DNA of 20,000 nt. Origin: an uncultured virus (IMG/VR IMGVR_UViG_3300010938_000024) (lineage: Duplodnaviria > Heunggongvirae > Uroviricota > Caudoviricetes). Location of the stretch: IMG/VR virus record IMGVR_UViG_3300010938_000024. The stretch is one strand, 5' to 3'. The position numbers were made by a program, and so were the translations under genes. Below are positions 9,401 through 18,753 of the stretch, in pieces (positions within the stretch are counted from its first letter, which is position 1; each line of letters opens with the position of its first letter). Below the pieces are notes generated by a model. The model made no database searches and was not told the DNA's origin. It saw only the letters and a list, made by a program, of their open reading frames with translations.

Positions 9401-10160
9401 CCTGTAAATCATAAGAATATAGAACTAATTGATTGCTAGAATTAATTTGTGTCCAGATGATTTTATTATCTCCAAAACCTTCTACAAATTTTGATTTATT
9501 TGCAGGAGAAGAAAAAATAAATAATGTTTTATCGGCAGTTTCTAATTTAGAACCACTGTATTCCTGTTTAATTTTATTATTAAATAAATGTAAAATACCA
9601 CTTCTGGATAAAGAATTATTTGATGCTATTAAAGTAAAATATTTTCTTGCCGAAATAGTTGAATCAGGAACTGTAAATTCTTTTCCCCCTGCTGATTTTC
9701 CCTTAATATCTGAAAAAGAAATATTATTTAAAGCAGAATCATATGTAATTTCCCCATCTGAAATACCAGGATTTAGTCCATCTAAAGAAGTAATAGCATC
9801 CTCTAATTCTTCTTTTGATATTAAATCCGGATATTCAAAATCTTTACCATTAAAATATGCAATTACTGTGTCTATATCTGTAATAGATTCTTTTATAGTC
9901 ACTACAGGAGCTATATAAGGCAAAGAACTATCTATACTCCCTACTATATAATAAGTTGAATAAGTTGGTATGGCAAGAGTCATTTCATCCATCTCTGCCA
10001 TAATACCATTTGACATAAATTTAAAAGGACTTAATCTAATATAACCAGACTCTAAAAAAATAACAGGTTTTTCTAATAAACCTTTTGTATTTAATATATA
10101 TTGAATCTCATTAAGGGATTCAGCATTAAAAGAAGAATTACTTTGTAGTATTTTTCTCAT
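6438..10160 (-). CDS. Large tail fibre/tailspike protein (1240 aa) with right-handed beta-helix regions
   Basis: About 10-aa fibre repeats (NSITTVEIA NSAVTLEKLA PNSVDSSKIV DGSIQNNDIA) and C-terminal pectin-lyase-like repeats (YNVIDHCYI, YNRILNSYI, YNIIKNCFI, YNIIEGNTI, YNKVINNNC). Confidence 0.7.
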   Translation of the reverse strand: MRKILQSNSSFNAESLNEIQYILNTKGLLEKPVIFLESGYIRLSPFKFMSNGIMAEMDEMTLAIPTYSTYYIVGSIDSSLPYIAPVVTIKESITDIDTVIAYFNGKDFEYPDLISKEELEDAITSLDGLNPGISDGEITYDSALNNISFSDIKGKSAGGKEFTVPDSTISARKYFTLIASNNSLSRSGILHLFNNKIKQEYSGSKLETADKTLFIFSSPANKSKFVEGFGDNKIIWTQINSSNQLVLYSYDLQADTPTIIGVGSSVTNYDVAKKDDQLIFIYISGGMVYLAIYDTNLNLIALKNLTSILSLPLPATLVNIKQRKDYLFEIYVYFNTTNYPLYCILMDTTSPSNIIYQVKYTNTNLSNVTKLESECFLTKNKSKILLLTSDNILYRYVYNHLGYNFTSLSSFNNISDAYILKDSIDREIIALLRNTSSKHQIVIYKAQKIIKYYDIPLTVSSFFASVLITDLYFGYTDGTNYYIIRFDGKRIETNSYPGASLSRLDVVHGLLGVTLISGGNTYARLFPTGLRFPEDDKLNIFGLIYQNSTKNFYNNGINTTPRVLKKKFVKSDTNLTAGSNVYNLNILNLNKIVEKILDNVSPTDTTTITLKITSPIVIVSGLYENISLVSKLNIQGTLYLHDLTGAEVSLFGGTGITVTRISSNTFKSTTKLKYKLKLYDLLTDGTNKIKVIEILDDYTFKTDIDTTVTNLTILPDVILDNLIVKRILDNGVIINPPCNNLIIKNCKLFGKIKIGNSTDIYGNCYIEKSEIEDLKVSVNTITIKDSKFKLDSDTPAGYVFETFSKMVLDNNDIKLVNNTTYPFYNHGNLAVIENNNFYEVLSARLFYGSNVINYVFRNNKGISIGDVSVLNSINLDQCTLESPGIASINLFPNSITTVEIANSAVTLEKLAPNSVDSSKIVDGSIQNNDIADFTILSRKINRNSGFVTVGDSAYGDQYTGINGLINAFNDGYSLILLRGGITYDGPSETPGFNERCIIIGFPFAGSYPVIQGTLYLNDYCHLENIVTGGNVKIKNGKNLCYLKNVYIYADNTSFALDIEGSYNVIDHCYITNRSGPAVLIPPGGGNYNRILNSYIATWNPLAGGYNNNHTIHISRAYNIIKNCFIARDAVGIKDIALIYIYGSAGNYNIIEGNTIYPYNFATAGAGINNYIRIGDGSNTPYYNKVINNNCLVTVNPSNLNYGVYVNPQYYTFIMGNRFELANAVSNLTNPYNSLVGFNIL

Positions 10161-11095
10161 GTTCTAACAAAAAGAATTCCTTTACTGATATATGTATAAA
10201 AATCATAAGAAGTTCCATTCCATTTAACAAATACACCTTTTCCAGTATTTCCAGGTATCCAATTCTGGTTGATTGCAGTAAAATTTATTTGAGTTCTAGA
10301 AACAGAAGGAACCATTACTTGATTGTCTGCTTTTATCCAAACATATGGATCAGTAGGAACAGATTTATGTACTTTAATAAATAAATCCAATTTCTTAGGA
10401 TAAGTTCCAGGTCCTGATGAAGTAATCCATTGATTTTCTAAATAATCACTACTGCTTAAATCTATTGCTGTATCAAATACCTGTATTAATTCTCTATTTA
10501 TAAAATAGGGATAAAAATTACCAGATATTACTTCTCCTATCGGTATTTGATATATAGAACCTACTTTACCAAATTGATCTGCTGATATAAAAGGATCCCA
10601 AGAACCACTTATTGATATACTAGTTAATTGTACTGGATTAGTTGTAGCAGAAGGATCAAATTGCAAAACTATAATTCTATCTGATCCTGCTACTGCTAAA
10701 GAAAGTAAAGAATCAATTCTTATTATTTTTTTACTAAAATTACAAATAATCCCATTCACCTCTATATTCCCCGCATTCACTCCAAATATGGCTCCTGAAG
10801 GAACTTCACAAATACAATCTCTATTATACCCAGCTATTAAAGCAATTGCTTCTGCCAAGTCAGATAGAGTTGTAAAACCAGCTGCACTGGATATTGCAGT
10901 TTGCAAGGAACCTATATTATTATCTATAGATGCAATTTTATCTTGAAGAACTGCAAATCCACTTCTAGATTGAATTATTTCATTTAAATAATTATCTAAT
11001 AAATTCCAGTTATCATTAAGCAAACTTCCCCATGTATCTTCATCTGAATCTATATCTGGAACATTTAAACCTGCATAAATTGTTTTAGTAGCCAT
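10157..11095 (-). CDS. Putative tail fibre protein (312 aa)
   Basis: N-terminus GLNVPDIDSDEDTWGSLLNDNWNLLD is the common fibre-attachment motif, followed by a coiled segment. AGGAGGT SD. Confidence 0.65.
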   Translation of the reverse strand: MATKTIYAGLNVPDIDSDEDTWGSLLNDNWNLLDNYLNEIIQSRSGFAVLQDKIASIDNNIGSLQTAISSAAGFTTLSDLAEAIALIAGYNRDCICEVPSGAIFGVNAGNIEVNGIICNFSKKIIRIDSLLSLAVAGSDRIIVLQFDPSATTNPVQLTSISISGSWDPFISADQFGKVGSIYQIPIGEVISGNFYPYFINRELIQVFDTAIDLSSSDYLENQWITSSGPGTYPKKLDLFIKVHKSVPTDPYVWIKADNQVMVPSVSRTQINFTAINQNWIPGNTGKGVFVKWNGTSYDFYTYISKGILFVRT

Positions 11096-11108
11096 TAAAT
11101 TTTACCTC

Positions 11109-11690
11109 CTAAAAAGGTGAATATAATCTTCTGGTTATTGTTATATTTATATCTTCTTGATAATTAAGTGCTTCATCTGGATAATGTAATTTAAGATAAG
11201 CATGTAAAATAGGAGCCGGTGAATCCGCAAGAACTAAATCACATATATCAGTTCCTTCATTGTGCGAATTTACTAAAGTTCTGTATTGTGAATAAAATCC
11301 AATTTCATTTATTAAATAGGGAGGAGGAGGAGAACTTCTCTGCCCTAAATGAACATTTGTAAATGTTTTTGTGATTTCAATCCAAGCATTAACACTATCC
11401 TGACCAAATACAACATCTGTTTGATTTATTTTAGCCCAAAATAGAGGATTTACCAATCCAGCAATTGTTTTATCATAAGGGTTATTATTTTTTTCTGTTC
11501 CAATTAAAACTAAAGAAATAGGAGGATTAGCTTCTGTCTCTCCAGGCGGAGGAGTTTCTCCTGTAATTTTATCAGTTAGTCTTTTAACTCTATTAATTGT
11601 TCCATTTATTGTAATTAAATTATTATACTTTCTCTCAAAAAGTAAAATATTATTTTTATGAACCCGTATTATTATTTCACCACGATCCAT
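11109..11690 (-). CDS. Putative baseplate/tail-collar fibre-anchor protein (193 aa)
   Basis: RGEIIIRV...NNLITINGT...LIGT...INEIGFY...LHAY resembles tail-collar (DUF3751-like) proteins. It sits between the baseplate and fibre genes. Confidence 0.55.
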   Translation of the reverse strand: MDRGEIIIRVHKNNILLFERKYNNLITINGTINRVKRLTDKITGETPPPGETEANPPISLVLIGTEKNNNPYDKTIAGLVNPLFWAKINQTDVVFGQDSVNAWIEITKTFTNVHLGQRSSPPPPYLINEIGFYSQYRTLVNSHNEGTDICDLVLADSPAPILHAYLKLHYPDEALNYQEDINITITRRLYSPF

Positions 11691-11697
11691 TAAATTA

Positions 11698-11727
11698 ATT
11701 TTACCATATTTATAAATTTATTGTCAA
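11698..11727 (-). promoter_or_regulatory. Sigma70-type promoter, predicted leaderless transcript
   Basis: TTGACA (11727-11722), 18 bp, TGgTAAAAT (-10 at 11703-11698), 7 nt, ATG (11690). No SD. Confidence 0.7.
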
Positions 11728-13088
11728 ATTCCATCCCATTCATAATACGATTCTCCTCCAAATATTTCATACATAGGATGAAAATTAAGTGTTATTGAAC
11801 CAAATAAATGCTGACTAAGGGGTCCATCTTCCGTATCATAAAATTCAAAACTGTCCTGCATATATTTAACAAATCTCCAGATTAAATACGAATAAATAGG
11901 TTTTATCTTGTTCATTAAATCTATATCATAATAATCAAGTGCAATTTTATATATGCTATTTACTATAATCCTAAAATTATATTTCATAATTTTTTCTTTT
12001 GAAGGAAAAACTTCTATTGAAGTTTCTCCTAAATCTACATTTCCATCTAATACATAACAAGGAACTCTAAAAATATTATTCCCAAATGAAACATCCTTGT
12101 TCTCAATATCCAAAACAGTATTTATAAATTGCTTGTTATTTACAGTATTTATAATATGTTCTCCTATCTCTATTTTCACATCAGTATATAAATACTTAGG
12201 TTCTACTATTCTACCTTTACCTGTTCTGTAATATCCTAATTTCTTCATATCATCAAAATCTATATATAATTTATAATCTTGATTTATTAATACATCTGTT
12301 GTAAAAATAGCCATTGTTAGAGGCTGAAACCTTTTTACATTGTCCCCTTCTAAAAGATATAAATAATTCTCAAATCCACTCAAATTATATTCGTTGTTAT
12401 TTATTTTAATATAATTTGTTCCTACTTCTGTAACAACACCATCTTCATAAGAAATAGGAAATTTCATAAGAATATTCATTGCAATCCAAATATTATATAC
12501 ATTCTTTCTATTAAATAATGTGTACCATAAACCAGAGGCTCTATTTAAATAATCATCTGAATCTTCTGATTTTGGCAATTCTACTAATGACCCTATAGTA
12601 TCAAATATTTTATATTCTTGAACTCTATAAAAACTTGTATATATAAATTTAATATTATCAGGAGGTTCTCCTATTATAGATTTTTTAATTGCTAATTCAG
12701 AATTTGTATCAGTTCTATTATTTACAAAAAAATTAAATTTACCAAATTCATCTTTTTCTGGAATTTCAATAGAATTCTCTAAAATTGATTTGTAAAGAGA
12801 ATATACTTTATACAAAGGAAATGGAATATTATAAACATAATAATCTATTGAATCTACAGTAATTGTTGCCTTTATAACAGACAAATCAAATACATTCCAA
12901 CCTCGCATTGTGCCTGGAACAATATTAAAAATACGAGGTGCATAAAACAACTCAGTATATACAGAATCTATATGAGAATAAGACAAATCAATTGCTTTTA
13001 TTACTGATGCTAAAAGATCCCTATTTTTAACAGAAGCAAAATATTTTCCTAATCCAGATAGAAATTCTTTATATTGTTCTTCAGGCAT
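11724..13088 (-). CDS. Putative baseplate wedge protein (454 aa)
   Basis: IGSLVELPKSEDSDDYLNRASGLW resembles the G.l..l.r..E.D..Y..R motif of gpI-like wedge proteins, and there is a C-terminal MNKIKPIYS (KP motif). Context supports it. Confidence 0.5.
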   Translation of the reverse strand: MPEEQYKEFLSGLGKYFASVKNRDLLASVIKAIDLSYSHIDSVYTELFYAPRIFNIVPGTMRGWNVFDLSVIKATITVDSIDYYVYNIPFPLYKVYSLYKSILENSIEIPEKDEFGKFNFFVNNRTDTNSELAIKKSIIGEPPDNIKFIYTSFYRVQEYKIFDTIGSLVELPKSEDSDDYLNRASGLWYTLFNRKNVYNIWIAMNILMKFPISYEDGVVTEVGTNYIKINNNEYNLSGFENYLYLLEGDNVKRFQPLTMAIFTTDVLINQDYKLYIDFDDMKKLGYYRTGKGRIVEPKYLYTDVKIEIGEHIINTVNNKQFINTVLDIENKDVSFGNNIFRVPCYVLDGNVDLGETSIEVFPSKEKIMKYNFRIIVNSIYKIALDYYDIDLMNKIKPIYSYLIWRFVKYMQDSFEFYDTEDGPLSQHLFGSITLNFHPMYEIFGGESYYEWDGI

Positions 13089-13225: not shown

Positions 13226-14095
13226 TTATTCCAATTTTACAATCTTCTTATCCCCTAAATTTTCAAATATATCAGATAAAGATCTACTTATTTTCTCAGC
13301 TTCTTTTTTAATTCCTGGAGTTATTTCTCCAGCAATTAACTTTTTTATAGATTCAACAGCTTCTTCTACAGGTTCATATTTTACAAAATTCAAAGATTGA
13401 ACTCTGTTTAACATTTTAGTAATACTCTCTTTTCTAGATTCCGTTATAGGCTTTCCTTCGGCTGAAGTTTTAATTCTATCACAACATTCTACTATAGTTT
13501 TATATAAATCCTCTAAAGCTACATTCACTACTTTATTAACTTCTAAACTTGCTTTATTAACAAAATCTTCTAAATTTTTATGCTTTGCAAGTAAAATATC
13601 CTTGCTATCTTTTAAACTGGTTACTAAATAATCAAAATAGAATTTACTTAAAATCTTTTCTTTACTGGGATATAGTTTTTCTATTTTCTCTAATAATTTC
13701 AAATCATAATCATGTTTTTCAAAAAACTTTTTATATTGTGCTAAAGCTTTCTTTTTAAGATTATTATAAGAATTAACAAATTCTTCAGCCTTCTTCATAT
13801 ATACAGACTCACCCTCTTTAAAAAATTCAGATATTTTTTCTAATTGGTCTAAAGGAATTATTCTGGCAGAACCTATTGGAAAAGGAAGAGTTAAATCATA
13901 AAATATAGATCTATAATGAGAAGATAATTTATAAAATTCATTAATCTTCTCTGCATCAATCAAATACTTACTGCCTAACATATAAAAATCAGGAATATCT
14001 TTTTTAGAAAGTTTCAAATCATCTGGATCTAAACGGGATTTTCCCGTCCAGAAACCAATAGATAATCCAACCAATAAAATATCATCATATATCAT
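13226..14095 (-). CDS. DUF3150-like protein (289 aa)
   Basis: LSIGFWTGKSRLDPDDL...LGSKYLID...TLPF...IIP...FVNSY...YPS.E.I..KF follows the DUF3150 pattern. Start revised to the ATG at 14095 after AAGGAGGT. Confidence 0.75.
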   Translation of the reverse strand: MIYDDILLVGLSIGFWTGKSRLDPDDLKLSKKDIPDFYMLGSKYLIDAEKINEFYKLSSHYRSIFYDLTLPFPIGSARIIPLDQLEKISEFFKEGESVYMKKAEEFVNSYNNLKKKALAQYKKFFEKHDYDLKLLEKIEKLYPSKEKILSKFYFDYLVTSLKDSKDILLAKHKNLEDFVNKASLEVNKVVNVALEDLYKTIVECCDRIKTSAEGKPITESRKESITKMLNRVQSLNFVKYEPVEEAVESIKKLIAGEITPGIKKEAEKISRSLSDIFENLGDKKIVKLE

Positions 14096-14111
14096 TCCAA
14101 AACCTCCTTCT

Positions 14112-14255
14112 TTACCCACAAAAACAATCTTTACAATTATCCTTATTTAAAGGACAACATAAATCCAAATTTATTTTTTTCAAATATTTGCAATTACATA
14201 TAATTCTGCCTTTTCTAATAGATATTTTAAATTTAATCTTTTTTAATTCCAACAT
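14112..14255 (-). CDS. Cys-rich microprotein (47 aa, 7 Cys)
   Basis: Not in the track. MLELKKIKFKISIRKGRIICNCKYLKKINLDLCCPLNKDNCKDCFCG has a GAGG SD and fills the gap up to the SD of the next gene. Confidence 0.6.
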   Translation of the reverse strand: MLELKKIKFKISIRKGRIICNCKYLKKINLDLCCPLNKDNCKDCFCG

Positions 14256-14424
14256 GAACTTTTTCCTCAATAGGTTCTACATAATATTCCTGTTTTTTTT
14301 TACAGGATAAAACATTAAAATTATTTTTAATCCAGTCATTTATACTATGTGTTTCACATACAGAACCCGTTCCCTGCATATCTATTGTTATTTTCCCTTT
14401 TCTTATTTTAAATTTAATTTTCAT
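14233..14424 (-). CDS. DUF2997-like small protein (63 aa)
   Basis: IKFKIRKGKITIDMQGTGSVC...NV...EYY matches the DUF2997 pattern (I.F.I..G.v..G.G..C...V...EYY). Canonical neighbour of DUF1257. Confidence 0.7.
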   Translation of the reverse strand: MKIKFKIRKGKITIDMQGTGSVCETHSINDWIKNNFNVLSCKKKQEYYVEPIEEKVHVGIKKD

Positions 14425-14719
14425 CTGCTACTTCCACCTCTATATCAATTCCATCCTGCACATCTTCTATAGATAATACATTTCCACCATATAAAGAAAC
14501 ATTATATAAAACTTCTTCTTTTAAATACTCATTTAATAATTTATCTACTTTATATTGATACATATTATCATAAATAATTTTATCTTTTTTAATAGTAATT
14601 ATCCCTCCTCCCTTTAATAAAATATTATTATCCTTTCTAATACAACCTAATCTTGCAATAACCTTATCTAATAAAATTTCATTGGTTAATTTAGCTTCTA
14701 CTTCAATTACTTGACTCAT
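14414..14719 (-). CDS. DUF1257/Ycf35-like protein (101 aa)
   Basis: Start revised to the ATG at 14719 (AGGAG SD). MSQVIEVEAKLTNEILLDKVIARLG...KLLNEY...G.NV...QDGIDIEV matches DUF1257. It follows the Ycf46-type ATPase. Confidence 0.7.
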   Translation of the reverse strand: MSQVIEVEAKLTNEILLDKVIARLGCIRKDNNILLKGGGIITIKKDKIIYDNMYQYKVDKLLNEYLKEEVLYNVSLYGGNVLSIEDVQDGIDIEVEVADEN

Positions 14720-16199
14720 CTTTAATTCTCCTGATTTTCTTGGTTTCCGAAGATCTATTTGATACATAAACAGCAAATTTATCAGCCCACTGTGCAATCT
14801 TATCTACATTTGAATTATACACAATAGGCTTTATTTTTTTTAATTCATTTAATAACATAGTCGTAGTTACAGGACTTTCTATGAAAAATGATTCTGTTAA
14901 TGCATTCTTAATTGCTGTTTCAATTTCAGCTCCCGTAAAATTAAAAGAAGCTTCTAATAAAGTATCCATTTCAAAATCATCTACATTTAATTTCCTTGAT
15001 TTTAAATGAATTTCAAATATTTCTTTTCTTTCTGATCTGTCAGGAACCGGTATATAAAATATCTCATCAAATCTTTCTTTTCTCAAAAACTCTACAGGCA
15101 AATCCAGAGAATTTGCAGTTGCTACTACAAAAACTCCCTCTGTTCTTTCCTGCATCCATGTAAGAAATATATTAACTACTCTTGCAGTAGTTCCTGCATC
15201 AGATCTCCCAGAAGATTCAACACCAGAAAATGCCTTTTCTATTTCATCTATCCATAAAACAATAGGACTCATTTCTGAAATCTGAGATAACATAGAGGTA
15301 ATATTACTTTCAGAAGCACCTACTAAAGACCCAAATATCTTAGATAAATCCATCCTAACTACAGGCATCCCTAAAAGACCACCAACAGATTTAGAAACTA
15401 ACGATTTCCCAGTTCCTGGAACTCCTAATAATAAAATCCCTTTTGGATATTCTAAACACATATTCTTTGCTTTAGTATAATTGTCTATTATCTTTTTTCT
15501 CTTTATAAGCCAGTCTTTTAAAACAGGCATACCCCCCACCATGTCAAAAGAAGGAGGATTAAATATAACTTCTAATCCTGCCTTCTTTAAAATATTCCTT
15601 TTCCCATCTAATAAATTATTCAAAAACATCTCTTTATTCTGAGAAATTGCACTTGCTATACTTACTATATTTATCAATTCTAATGTAGATAAACCTTTTA
15701 AATAATAAGTTACTTTATCTACAACTTCATCCTCTAATAAATATTTATCTACACTAGCATCCAAACTCTTCTCTACTAATTTTAAATATCTTTCTTTAAT
15801 TTGCTCTTTAGATAAAGGATCCCAATCTACTACTAATGCAAATTTATCAATATCATGAGGAAGATTTCCAAACCCTCCAGCTATTATAATTCTAGCTGCA
15901 TTTTCCTCTGCTAATTCTCTTACTAAATGAACTACTGCTGGTAAAGTTCTAATATTTAAATATTGATAAAATCCAGTAAATATCGTTGGAATTTTATCTG
16001 ACGCACAAGTTTTTAATGCCTGTATAGGATCTATCTTTCCATCATTGTTAAATCCACCATAAGGGGTCCATACCCTGCAAGATTTCTTATGATATTTATT
16101 ATATAAAAACTTAACCTCTTCAACCATATCAGATACCGCATATCCTCTAATCCAAACTAATGAAGGATCTGTTATTATAACTCTTTGTAAAGTAATCAT
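14703..16199 (-). CDS. Ycf46-type AAA+ ATPase (498 aa)
   Basis: VGGMPVLKDWL, PKGILLLGVPGTGKS (Walker A), SLVGASE, LWIDEIEKAF (Walker B), DAGTTARV, FLTWMQE, VATAN, RKERFDEIF, FTGAEIE; degenerate N-terminal domain. Start revised to the ATG at 16199 after AAGGAGG. Confidence 0.9.
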   Translation of the reverse strand: MITLQRVIITDPSLVWIRGYAVSDMVEEVKFLYNKYHKKSCRVWTPYGGFNNDGKIDPIQALKTCASDKIPTIFTGFYQYLNIRTLPAVVHLVRELAEENAARIIIAGGFGNLPHDIDKFALVVDWDPLSKEQIKERYLKLVEKSLDASVDKYLLEDEVVDKVTYYLKGLSTLELINIVSIASAISQNKEMFLNNLLDGKRNILKKAGLEVIFNPPSFDMVGGMPVLKDWLIKRKKIIDNYTKAKNMCLEYPKGILLLGVPGTGKSLVSKSVGGLLGMPVVRMDLSKIFGSLVGASESNITSMLSQISEMSPIVLWIDEIEKAFSGVESSGRSDAGTTARVVNIFLTWMQERTEGVFVVATANSLDLPVEFLRKERFDEIFYIPVPDRSERKEIFEIHLKSRKLNVDDFEMDTLLEASFNFTGAEIETAIKNALTESFFIESPVTTTMLLNELKKIKPIVYNSNVDKIAQWADKFAVYVSNRSSETKKIRRIKDESSN

Positions 16200-16209
16200 T
16201 TTTCCTCCT

Positions 16210-16641
16210 TTAAATTTGGTCAACCAATCTTTCGGTTTCTTTAATTACTTCAGGAACTGTCCAATAGTGGTCTTCACTTCCAGAATTTTTCCATAAATTT
16301 ATAAAATCCGCTTCCTCCATTCCATTTATTATCTTTTTTAAGTTGCTAGGTTTATATCTAAATGATAATACACTAGCTGGATCAAAATCTCCAAAATGAG
16401 CGCAATCAAATCCTATAACCCAATATTTTTTATCTTCTGAATAATCAGAATAAGTAATCCCACCATGAACATCCAAATCTTCTAATTCTTCACAGAAATA
16501 TTCTTTCTCAAATAACCTATGGTTTTTTGGCAATAATACATATCCGCATAAATGACCTAAGTATCTAATTCTAACTACACGACATATAAATCCTTTGTAT
16601 ATCCATTCCTTTACAATTTTATTATTCTTCATAGTTTTCAT
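16210..16641 (-). CDS. Conserved phage protein with GHLCGYV / VHGGITY / GFDCAH motifs (putative metal-binding)
   Basis: The motifs are visible in the translation. I recognise this as a widespread phage family of unknown function. ATGA-coupled to the upstream gene. Confidence 0.7.
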   Translation of the reverse strand: MKTMKNNKIVKEWIYKGFICRVVRIRYLGHLCGYVLLPKNHRLFEKEYFCEELEDLDVHGGITYSDYSEDKKYWVIGFDCAHFGDFDPASVLSFRYKPSNLKKIINGMEEADFINLWKNSGSEDHYWTVPEVIKETERLVDQI

Positions 16642-16991
16642 TTTTTTCTCCTTAAATTTTTAAAATCTATAAATATATTATTAATTCTCATAAATTTATC
16701 AAATTTATATTTTCTGCCTTTATTTTCTACATCATAATCTCCTTCTTTAATTAAATCCATTTTAGCATATAAAGGCTTTATTCCTAATTCTACTACTTTA
16801 GATATAACACTTAAAGGTGCTACAATCACCATCTCATCAAATTTATTTTTTCTAAAATAATTTACTATTTCCTCAGCATTATCAAAAGCATTTTCATAAT
16901 ATTTTATTTCTATTTCTCCAAATACAGATACTAAATCCTTCTTTTGAACTTCCAAAGCTTTATGTCTGGAAACCCATAGTATTTTTGTCAA
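16638..16991 (-). CDS. Small Rossmann-like protein resembling the Csx15/Csx16/Csx20 CRISPR-associated proteins (117 aa)
   Basis: TTG start after AAAGGAGGT. ILWVSRH...Q..DL...FG...VIVAPLSVISKVVELGIKPLYA...YKFDKFMRI. The CDS itself is well supported; the family call is tentative. Confidence 0.5.
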   Translation of the reverse strand: MTKILWVSRHKALEVQKKDLVSVFGEIEIKYYENAFDNAEEIVNYFRKNKFDEMVIVAPLSVISKVVELGIKPLYAKMDLIKEGDYDVENKGRKYKFDKFMRINNIFIDFKNLRRKK

Positions 16992-17040
16992 ATTTTGACC
17001 TCCTTTGGTAATAAAAATTTATTTTTTTTAATAAATTTTC

Positions 17041-17064
17041 AAGGGGGGGGTTATTACCCCCCTT
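17041..17064. other. G/C-run hairpin between baseplate J and the accessory cassette
   Basis: AAGGGGGGGG-TTATTA-CCCCCCTT. There is no clear U-tract on either strand, so it may be a weak terminator or a stabilising stem. Confidence 0.5.
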
Positions 17065-17136
17065 ATCCACCTAAAAAACTCTTTACCTGGATTAACCTGG
17101 GTAGAAATCCACCCTTATTTCAATAATATCTGAACC

Positions 17137-18753
17137 TCAAATTACTATAAAATCTGATAATACAAATTGAACTAATTTACTGGAAGGATTTAAAATAGAT
17201 TCATCTGTTATCACTTTCCATTTGCCATTTTTCTGCTCAATTTTAGCAGAAAATCTAGTAAAAGGAACTTCAACAAGAGCTTTAGGAGATACCTCCGAAA
17301 TTATACGAAATATCTCCGCAGCTTCCACTGATTCTCCAGGAGCTATTGAATATAAATATTCATTAATTTTAGTCTTTATCGTATCTATATCCAAAACCCC
17401 TGATATTTTCCTAACTACAATTGTAACTAATCCATATAAATATCTATAACTTAAATACTCAGAATGCAATACAGGATTTTCATTAATTACATTATTTTGT
17501 ATATCTAATTGTGTATCAAATATATCCAAAATAACCTTAAATTTTGAAACTCCCAATGTATCCAAACTATTTTTATTAGCCCAGATCTCCACTTTATCTA
17601 AATAAGAACCGAAATAATTCTTATTTCCTTTTAACAAAAAAATCCAGTTTCCTCCCTCATTGTAATTCCCCTGACCATATTTTCCTTTAACTTCACTGGG
17701 ATCTAAAGTTTTAAAATACCTGGAACCTACAGGAAAAGAATTCCCACTTGTATCCTGAATATCAGTAACTCTATAAATTCTTTTCCCAGTTAATGATGAT
17801 GTGTTTTTAAAAACATCAAAATTATCAGTATCAGATAAATCAATAGTTAATATTCTGTAAATTAAATTATTCCTAAAACTCTTTTTTTCAGGAAGCTCAG
17901 ATATATCTATTATCTCAGACATTACATTACTTAAATTCTTTTTTCTCAAAAACCAACCCTGATTAACCACTGAAGTTTTACAATATATATCTACAGCTGT
18001 TCCTACATGAACATTCTCAACTAAATCTCTCGTAACTTCTGAAGAACCACAACCATAACTGTACAATGCATCCACAGGATATAAACTTTTAATAACAGTA
18101 AAAATAGCATCATTTTGAACTAATTCTCTGGTAGCTAAAGACCTTTGTATTTTAGCATACAAATCTTCATTTGTTTCTTTCACAGAACTACCAGAGGGAA
18201 CTAAAAAACTATCATTCCCTATTAAATCATAAGATGTAGGAGTAATTCCTTCTACTCTAATAATTTCATCAGCTAAAGTTTTATAATCCTCTCCTACATC
18301 CTCTGCAATCACTGGAAAAATAATAAAATACATATTCTTAACAGAATCAAAATTAGATTCTATTTCATCTTTACTAAATGTATAAAAATCTTTAGCAAAA
18401 AATTTTGCCTCAGATTTATTATACACCGTAGTTAAAGGAGTTATATATGCCTTATCAGGTGCTGTTACATAATATATCTTTACATTTCCTTGATATTTAT
18501 CTTGAACTGCTCTCTGAACTAAAAAATTAGAAGCCAAAGAATCCATAGATTCTTCAGCCATTTCATTAAAATTCTTAAGATATAAATAAGAATTTACTAC
18601 TCTATATTTAACCCAAATATCAGATAAAACCGCATTTAAAGCTTTTACAAAAAATTCATAATAAGGAGTTCCAGGACGAATATCTGCATCCGGGAACTCC
18701 TCATTCAAAACTTTCTGTATAAACTGCTCTAAATTTAATTCCTCATCTGCCAT
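17137..18753 (-). CDS. Baseplate J-like protein (538 aa)
   Basis: DIRPGTPYYEFFV, MDSLASNFLVQR, G.VKIY, VIAE.VGEDY, ETNEDLYAKI, GTAVDIY and IKTKINEYLYSIAPGESV are hallmark baseplate J motifs. Confidence 0.82.
   Translation of the reverse strand: MADEELNLEQFIQKVLNEEFPDADIRPGTPYYEFFVKALNAVLSDIWVKYRVVNSYLYLKNFNEMAEESMDSLASNFLVQRAVQDKYQGNVKIYYVTAPDKAYITPLTTVYNKSEAKFFAKDFYTFSKDEIESNFDSVKNMYFIIFPVIAEDVGEDYKTLADEIIRVEGITPTSYDLIGNDSFLVPSGSSVKETNEDLYAKIQRSLATRELVQNDAIFTVIKSLYPVDALYSYGCGSSEVTRDLVENVHVGTAVDIYCKTSVVNQGWFLRKKNLSNVMSEIIDISELPEKKSFRNNLIYRILTIDLSDTDNFDVFKNTSSLTGKRIYRVTDIQDTSGNSFPVGSRYFKTLDPSEVKGKYGQGNYNEGGNWIFLLKGNKNYFGSYLDKVEIWANKNSLDTLGVSKFKVILDIFDTQLDIQNNVINENPVLHSEYLSYRYLYGLVTIVVRKISGVLDIDTIKTKINEYLYSIAPGESVEAAEIFRIISEVSPKALVEVPFTRFSAKIEQKNGKWKVITDESILNPSSKLVQFVLSDFIVI

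Follow-up and report, generated by a model that had tools for sequence, protein, structure and literature searches.

Of the known ways in which phages defeat type III CRISPR signalling, viral ring nucleases are the main one. AcrIII-1 (Crn2, DUF1874), a small dimeric viral enzyme, destroys cyclic tetraadenylate (cA4), and cellular copies of it are located inside type III loci. Csx15, Csx16 and Csx20 were predicted earlier to be ring nucleases on the basis of conserved His, Arg and acidic residues and of fusions to Csx1 (PMC8284326), and experiments are reported in which Csx20 and Csx16 were cA4-specific ring nucleases and Csx15 was nearly inactive (PMC12409355). Csx16 (PF09652, Cas_VVA1548) is reported to be a cA4 ring nuclease related to Csx20 and to have the same small CARF-like core (PMC12409355; PMC8284326). 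Crn4 (Unk01) is described as a broad-spectrum ring nuclease with orthologues in phages and plasmids and with a new, almost all-beta fold that contains one short helix and an extended domain-swapping hairpin (PMC12830947). Here, these systems are compared with a protein of 117 amino acids (aa) that is encoded at 16638..16991 on the minus strand of a DNA stretch of 20,000 nucleotides (nt) from an uncultured tailed virus (IMG/VR IMGVR_UViG_3300010938_000024); this whole stretch is referred to as the window. The initial annotation had proposed the protein to be a Csx15/16/20-like ring nuclease or sponge for cyclic oligoadenylates (cOA).

The best explanation of the data, to which a probability of roughly 45% is assigned, is that the 117-aa protein belongs to the Csx20-like branch, as a divergent member carried by a virus, and acts as a cOA ring nuclease. 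New in this would be a divergent, mainly viral Csx20-like family; the kind of protein, the Csx20-type ring nucleases, is known.

Conservation, remote homology to Csx20 and predicted fold

The open reading frame (ORF) at 16638..16991 starts with TTG, and its product begins with MTKILWVSRHKALEVQKKDL. A gene had been placed here by the initial annotation without naming a strand, and all of the motifs described for it could be located in the translation: a hydrophobic N-terminal strand with S8-R9-H10 at its end, Q16..D19-L20, V55-I-V-A-P-L60, the strand G70-I-K-P-L-Y-A76 and, close to the C-terminus, F97..F100.R102. These motifs are not due to chance, since they are near-invariant in 132 single-domain representatives, in which W6 is conserved in 126, S8 in 125, H10 in 117, Q16 in 123, P59 in 130, P73 in all 132, F97 in 121, F100 in 120 and R102 in 121 cases. 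The conservation of the family, which can be summarized as WxSRH..Q, VAP, P and F..F.R, is regarded as established.

When 1.84 billion representatives were searched exhaustively with HMMER, 380 passed a threshold of E<=1e-3 and 118 one of E<=1e-10; 705 further clusters belong to a sister clade described below (A3 type). In the ESM Atlas clusters around the 117-aa protein, 44-65% of the members with known taxa are viral, and the source databases label family members as "hypothetical protein". No useful match to the 117-aa protein was obtained with Pfam (E<=0.01), NCBIfam and PADLOC, PHROGs gave only phrog_26327 (E 0.003), and an archaeal HAD model reached 17.7 bits at a cut-off of 151.9. None of 149 family representatives passed a Pfam cut-off. 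Furthermore, tblastn returned nothing for three diverse members in 50,697 deposited phage records and nothing for one member in 72,556 plasmids, and cellular genomes rarely carry the family (2 of 400 Clostridia; 1 of 401 genomes of one order, this being the seed itself). A literature search found no earlier description of the family; subscription papers and the supplementary phage ring-nuclease lists of PMC12409355 were outside its reach, so that a member may be listed there. The family is large, unnamed, mainly viral and without a curated model.

For the comparison with Csx20, a family profile of 93 sequences (A2) was aligned with a profile of 12 Csx20 sequences (A4) obtained with the PADLOC model, which matched 19 of 389 Clostridia genomes and, in a control set, Methanocaldococcus jannaschii. 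The hhalign probability was 88.7% (E 2.5e-6) over 98 columns, i.e. nearly the whole domain, and controls with reversed alignments gave E values of 0.17-0.21. In this alignment, H10 and Q16 are paired with the invariant His and Gln of Csx20 and the acidic residue 53 with its invariant Asp, followed by G70, P73 and the aromatic residue 75 (G, P and Tyr in Csx20) and by R93 and the aromatic residue 95 (R and F in Csx20). The motif FSH.L..EQ, which the initial annotation gave for Csx20, is close to the LLIFSHxLTxxQ of the 12 sequences. Weak in-register N-terminal matches of the PADLOC Csx20 hidden Markov models (HMMs) were detected in three of eight single-domain family members (1.1e-4, 6.4e-3 and 0.026), and a Csx20 HMM built here matched 2 of 274 family proteins at E<1e-3. 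The A2-A4 match is read as kinship at the superfamily level and not as family membership. As judged from these profiles, the family is a remote homologue and distant sister of Csx20, and this homology is counted among the established points.

Both proteins are of the alpha/beta type with about 120 aa, and in both the N-terminal strand is followed by the conserved His and, six residues on, by the Gln. Strand 3 is preceded by an acidic residue in both, strand 4 has the pattern G..P-aromatic, and the C-terminal strand is rich in aromatic residues. The residues invariant in the 12 Csx20 sequences are S8, H9, Q15, W39, P44, W59, D68, Q73, G74, G77, Y95, T97, T98, R100, E104, H120 and R124. Csx20 differs from the window family by an S-H in place of S-R-H, by the insertions LP..L..WSN.PP and the QGDFG loop, which the window family lacks, by T-T-x-R, which is replaced by A-x-M, and by several invariant Trp and Gly residues without a counterpart. 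Its H120 is Phe in the window's clade (Phe97 in 121 of 132), whereas it is His in the CRISPR-linked clade. Of 13 well-scoring Csx20 matches, 8 share an open frame with a protein of 549-620 aa, the known CARF-HEPN-Csx20 fusion. Csx20 is probably the MJ1673 family (Pfam PF27247), which would fit the match of the Csx20 HMM in M. jannaschii; MJ1673 is listed as a small type III-A-associated protein in a survey from 2014 (PMC3973734).

An AlphaFold2 model of the 117-aa protein, calculated with the 93-sequence alignment, reached a predicted local distance difference test score (pLDDT) of 96.6 and a predicted template modelling score (pTM) of 0.86. In line with the alpha/beta protein described in the initial annotation, strands alternate with helices, in the order β1 (2-7), α1 (14-24), β2 (27-31), α2 (39-48), β3 (53-56), α3 (60-68), β4 (74-81), β5 (88-90) and β6 (93-102). 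A small six-stranded Rossmann-like sheet is predicted with confidence, in which Ser8 ends strand 1 and strands 5 and 6 are adjacent in sequence. CARF-like cores are six-stranded and Rossmann-like, have strands 5 and 6 arranged as a hairpin and carry Ser or Thr at the end of strand 1; the order of the six strands and the position of Ser8 in the model may correspond to this CARF-type layout. The fold class is considered established at the level of the model. A search of the PDB by sequence, using the single sequence as well as a profile, gave nothing below E 0.3. The fold comparison with solved structures returned only generic matches (Foldseek, best E 0.016). In the ESM Atlas structure search, the nearest match was the CRISPR-associated MJ1673 cluster, with a template modelling (TM) score of 0.70; the cluster consists to 100% of PF27247 and is a lead only. 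The N-terminus of a TIGR02221 CRISPR protein was found as well (TM 0.66).

Head-to-tail tandem fusions of the domain were present in 23 of 155 representatives. The His and the Arg are mostly retained in either half; in the second one, Ser is often replaced by Thr and Gln by Glu. One tandem fusion was modelled (20 sequences, 255-residue chain), and its pLDDT of 92.3 and pTM of 0.80 suggest that the two halves pack in a defined way. The tandem fusions, one of which is modelled confidently as a whole, suggest a dimer as the working unit of the family. Other members carry additional C-terminal pieces, namely P0013 (160 aa), P0042 (213 aa) and P0112 (305 aa). The tail of P0013 shows a weak ribbon-helix-helix match (E 0.006, below the cut-off), those of P0042 and P0112 are Cys-rich and zinc-ribbon-like, and these pieces might be regulators or tethers. 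A search for longer fused forms revealed three proteins that are extended at the N-terminus by unannotated sequence; no fusion to Csx1 was seen.

Among the other ring nucleases, AcrIII-1 has the same role as is proposed for the 117-aa protein. It differs in that no Pfam family of any kind matches the 117-aa protein (the presence of a DUF1874 model in the library was not checked) and in that the fold predicted here is Rossmann-like. Csx16 is set apart from the window protein by its Pfam model PF09652, which matches neither this protein nor 154 relatives. Scans for Csx16 sequences in 401, 2 and 391 genomes gave none, and since their controls were silent too, they carry no information on Csx16. 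Crn4 is similar in size, and a conserved Thr/Ser-x-His near the N-terminus and an Arg about 100 residues on are found in both (T13, H15 and R112 in Crn4; S8, H10 and R102 here). In contrast to the Crn4 fold, the model of the 117-aa protein has three helices of 9-11 residues that are predicted to pack on the six-stranded sheet.

Two clades and the CRISPR neighbourhoods of the A3 type

Genome, viral and metagenome collections were scanned with patterns, which gave 7, 18 and 48 loci, respectively. From the metagenome set, 26 loci were scanned for neighbours; L064, a duplicate of L063, was skipped, and a few duplicates among the neighbours of L061 and L068 were left out. Clade-specific HMMs split the encoded proteins into two clades, the A2 type, to which the window protein belongs, with the motif DEMVIVAPLSVI...KPLWAEM...GRxYRFxxFxR, and the A3 type with DVYAVVLP...ExEYxFxHxxW. 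The two profiles match each other (hhalign 99.7%, E 3.5e-25) and the N-terminal ILWVSRH..Q is identical.

In total, cas genes were found in ten loci, all of which are of the A3 type. They comprise four of the seven genome loci (L021, L022, L023 and L025) and six of the 26 scanned metagenome loci (L079, L083, L084, L086, L092 and L100). All ten are type III-D loci with Cas10d, Csx10, repeat-associated mysterious proteins (RAMPs) of the Csx7/Csm3 type, Csx19, a TIGR03986 RAMP and Cas6. Directly downstream of the A3 member, a CARF protein or a CARF-HEPN Csx1/Csm6 RNase is encoded in nine of nine informative loci (PADLOC, E 1e-43 to 1e-99); the tenth, L021, stops at the contig edge. This type III-D/Csx1 context of the sister clade is regarded as established. 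The A3 clade thereby has the same CARF2-type Csx1/Csm6 genes as partners to which Csx20 is often fused, and it keeps the C-terminal F-x-H-V motif of Csx20. That the family is a copy of the neighbouring CARF domain was rejected, as hhalign shows no similarity to the adjacent CARF proteins.

The A3 type is frequent in gut phages as well, where it adjoins RecT, reverse transcriptase and similar genes. Over the phages, the neighbours of family members vary (DNA methylase, HNH, RecT, reverse transcriptase), and there is no conserved partner.

Further observations were made at individual loci. In the type III-D locus of a Clostridia metagenome-assembled genome (MAG; L025:5700-7700), an array of at least six units of about 158 bp is located between cas6 and the family member. 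Each unit has strong Shine-Dalgarno (SD) sites and a pair of very short ORFs (MRVLEEYM and MPTIDVSISW), and between the units lie ORFs of 42 aa (MRDFKEVPETLQSENRIEYHFNYENF...). In the type III-D locus of a second Clostridia MAG (L022:2499-2794), MDMPRIDISFSW occurs twice together with a similar 42-aa ORF. The array is not a CRISPR array and may encode pheromone-like peptides or peptides resembling ribosomally synthesized and post-translationally modified peptides. The second gene downstream of the L025 family member (10567-12084) encodes a 505-aa protein with Schlafen/AlbA_2 and HATPase_c_4 domains, which PADLOC matches to pAgo-associated SIR2-PNTD proteins. It is followed by a tyrosine recombinase gene, because of which this end of the locus may be mobile.

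In a small bacterial MAG (L020:5742-8788), a member of the window's clade lies just downstream of ThiF/E1-like and ubiquitin-like (Ub-Mut7C) genes and near a UvrD/PD-(D/E)XK helicase-nuclease split by an intein; this region could be a ubiquitin-like defence or phage module. Another family match (E 4.1e-11) is located between recN and spoIVB of genome G359 (L033:9637-9990, minus strand). Its neighbours are all encoded on the opposite strand, and it overlaps an ORF of 154 aa on the plus strand; either frame could be the gene.

Position of the gene in the phage genome

The window also contains genes for DnaB, a primase, a PolA-type exonuclease, a tail fibre, a baseplate wedge, an AAA+ ATPase and a DUF3150 protein, a content by which it is identified as a piece of a tailed-phage genome. 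All ORFs of more than 100 aa are on the minus strand except 9433-9918 (plus strand), which lies inside the 1240-aa tail-fibre gene. As stated in the initial annotation, the window is free of cas genes according to Pfam and PHROGs scans of its proteins. An identical 117-aa protein is on record in a contig of 76,889 bases.

Upstream of the 117-aa gene, a baseplate-wedge-like structural gene (17137..18753, minus strand; PHROGs phrog_6) shows the phage context. Between both genes, a terminator-like GC hairpin (GGGGGG-loop-CCCCCC) with a T-rich tail was detected at 17040..17065 on the minus strand, one site being found where 0.5 were expected. With this hairpin after the baseplate gene, the 117-aa gene opens a new transcription unit, in agreement with its earlier description as the first gene of a cassette. 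The good SD sequence described there could also be recovered: AAAGGAGGT, read from the sequence at 16998..17006 (minus strand), is strong and lies 6 nt upstream of the TTG.

Downstream follows a 143-aa gene without assigned function (16210..16641, minus strand; PHROGs phrog_2164), for the product of which a sequence search of the PDB gave no match. The stop codon of the 117-aa gene and the ATG of this gene share 4 nt (ATGA), and because of this overlap the two are probably translationally coupled. The third gene of the unit encodes a 506-aa AAA+ ATPase (14703..16223, minus strand; PF00004, phrog_8638), which shows about 30% identity with ATPases from phages of Rhizobium and Mycobacterium. Small ORFs and the DUF3150 gene complete the unit behind the 117-aa gene (13226-16641, minus strand), and the whole of it is wedged between baseplate and tail-fibre genes. 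Fusions of Crn3 with AAA+ proteins are known from cyanobacteria according to a review (PMC8284326).

Candidate function and significance

As a ring nuclease, the 117-aa protein would form a two-fold dimer with a pocket at the C-terminal edge of the sheet, lined by the S8-R9-H10 loop, Q16, the acidic residue 53, R93 and R102. The dimer would bind cOA made by the host Cas10, with cA4 as the most likely form, and would cleave it. Effectors of the Csx1/Csm6 type would then stay inactive and the phage would escape type III CRISPR, as with AcrIII-1. That the protein acts on cOA in one of two ways, as ring nuclease or as sponge, is regarded as moderately probable.

Several results weigh against this assignment. 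The PADLOC Csx20 HMMs PDLC01659 and PDLC01384 did not match the 117-aa protein (E<=1), and PF09652 (Csx16) matched neither this protein and the 149 representatives (E<=0.01) nor six close relatives (E<=10). The homology to Csx20 is remote: of the Csx20 invariants only the His, the Gln, the acidic residue and the strand-4 aromatic are kept in the window family (H10, Q16, E/D53 and W/Y75), and the rest are absent or shifted. The A2-type loci examined come from viruses and from two MAGs, one archaeal and the other small and bacterial; in none of them is there a cas or CARF gene in the neighbourhood. The CRISPR association is therefore that of the sister A3 clade and not of the window's own, mostly viral clade, whereas Csx20 sits in type III loci with cOA-activated effectors or is fused to their genes. 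Binding of cOA, catalysis and an anti-CRISPR role are candidate functions of the 117-aa protein, proposed by analogy. By comparison with the available models, the protein falls outside Csx15/16/20 as these are now modelled; what stands of the earlier assignment is the remote homology to Csx20 and the type III-D loci of the sister clade.

The likeness to Csx20 could also reflect a common fold, in which case the 117-aa protein would be an unrelated small Rossmann-like phage protein, serving as an accessory in nucleotide metabolism, replication or morphogenesis together with the phrog_2164 protein and the AAA+ ATPase. This would agree with the position of the gene between the baseplate and tail-fibre modules and its probable coupling to the phrog_2164 gene, with the generic PDB matches, with an hhalign probability to Csx20 of less than 95% and with the absence of a match in any of the defence or anti-defence libraries. 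It would, however, leave the sister clade directly upstream of Csx1/Csm6 in the nine informative III-D loci without explanation, and the changing phage neighbours without a conserved partner are typical of accessory or anti-defence genes. Such an unrelated role is thus considered unlikely.

A cOA sponge, i.e. a dimer or oligomer that binds the cyclic oligoadenylate tightly without cleaving it and titrates the signal away from the effectors, would be supported by the same homology and context as a ring nuclease. The window's clade lacks the T-T-x-R after strand 4 and the H120 of Csx20, and for Csx15, a relative with nearly no cleavage, a sponge role was raised by the authors (PMC12409355). Yet His10, Ser8, Gln16 and two arginines are nearly invariant, which is more than binding usually needs, and the cellular sister clade with its Csx1/Csm6 partner is expected to reset signalling by degradation, so that a sponge appears rather improbable. 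Least probable among these alternatives is that the same fold and binding mode serve another ligand instead of type III cOA, such as cyclic triadenylate (cA3) or another signal of the cyclic-oligonucleotide-based antiphage signalling system (CBASS), or a Thoeris or Pycsar signal. The identity of ILWVSRH..Q in both clades argues for the same chemistry, and SAVED matches were no better than those of unrelated Rossmann folds in the same list.

For the ring nuclease as the preferred reading, the wider proposal is made with somewhat less assurance than for the activity itself: the 117-aa protein may be the founding example of a new anti-CRISPR family, a very large and almost purely viral clade of Csx20-like ring nucleases with hundreds of 50%-identity clusters, natural single-chain pseudo-dimers included. 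Among deposited phage genomes, ring nucleases are reported as AcrIII-1 in 36, Crn4 in 11, Csx20 in 4 and Csx16 in 2 (PMC12409355, PMC12830947). The family described here has hundreds of clusters in metagenomic viruses as opposed to zero matches in the deposited phage records. If it degrades or sequesters cOA, the known repertoire against type III CRISPR grows. Type III-D loci would gain a fifth lineage of CARF-like ring nucleases, and the single-chain pseudo-dimers would be handy for structural work. Furthermore, uncultured phages would degrade cOA signals much more often than the few cases known to date suggest.
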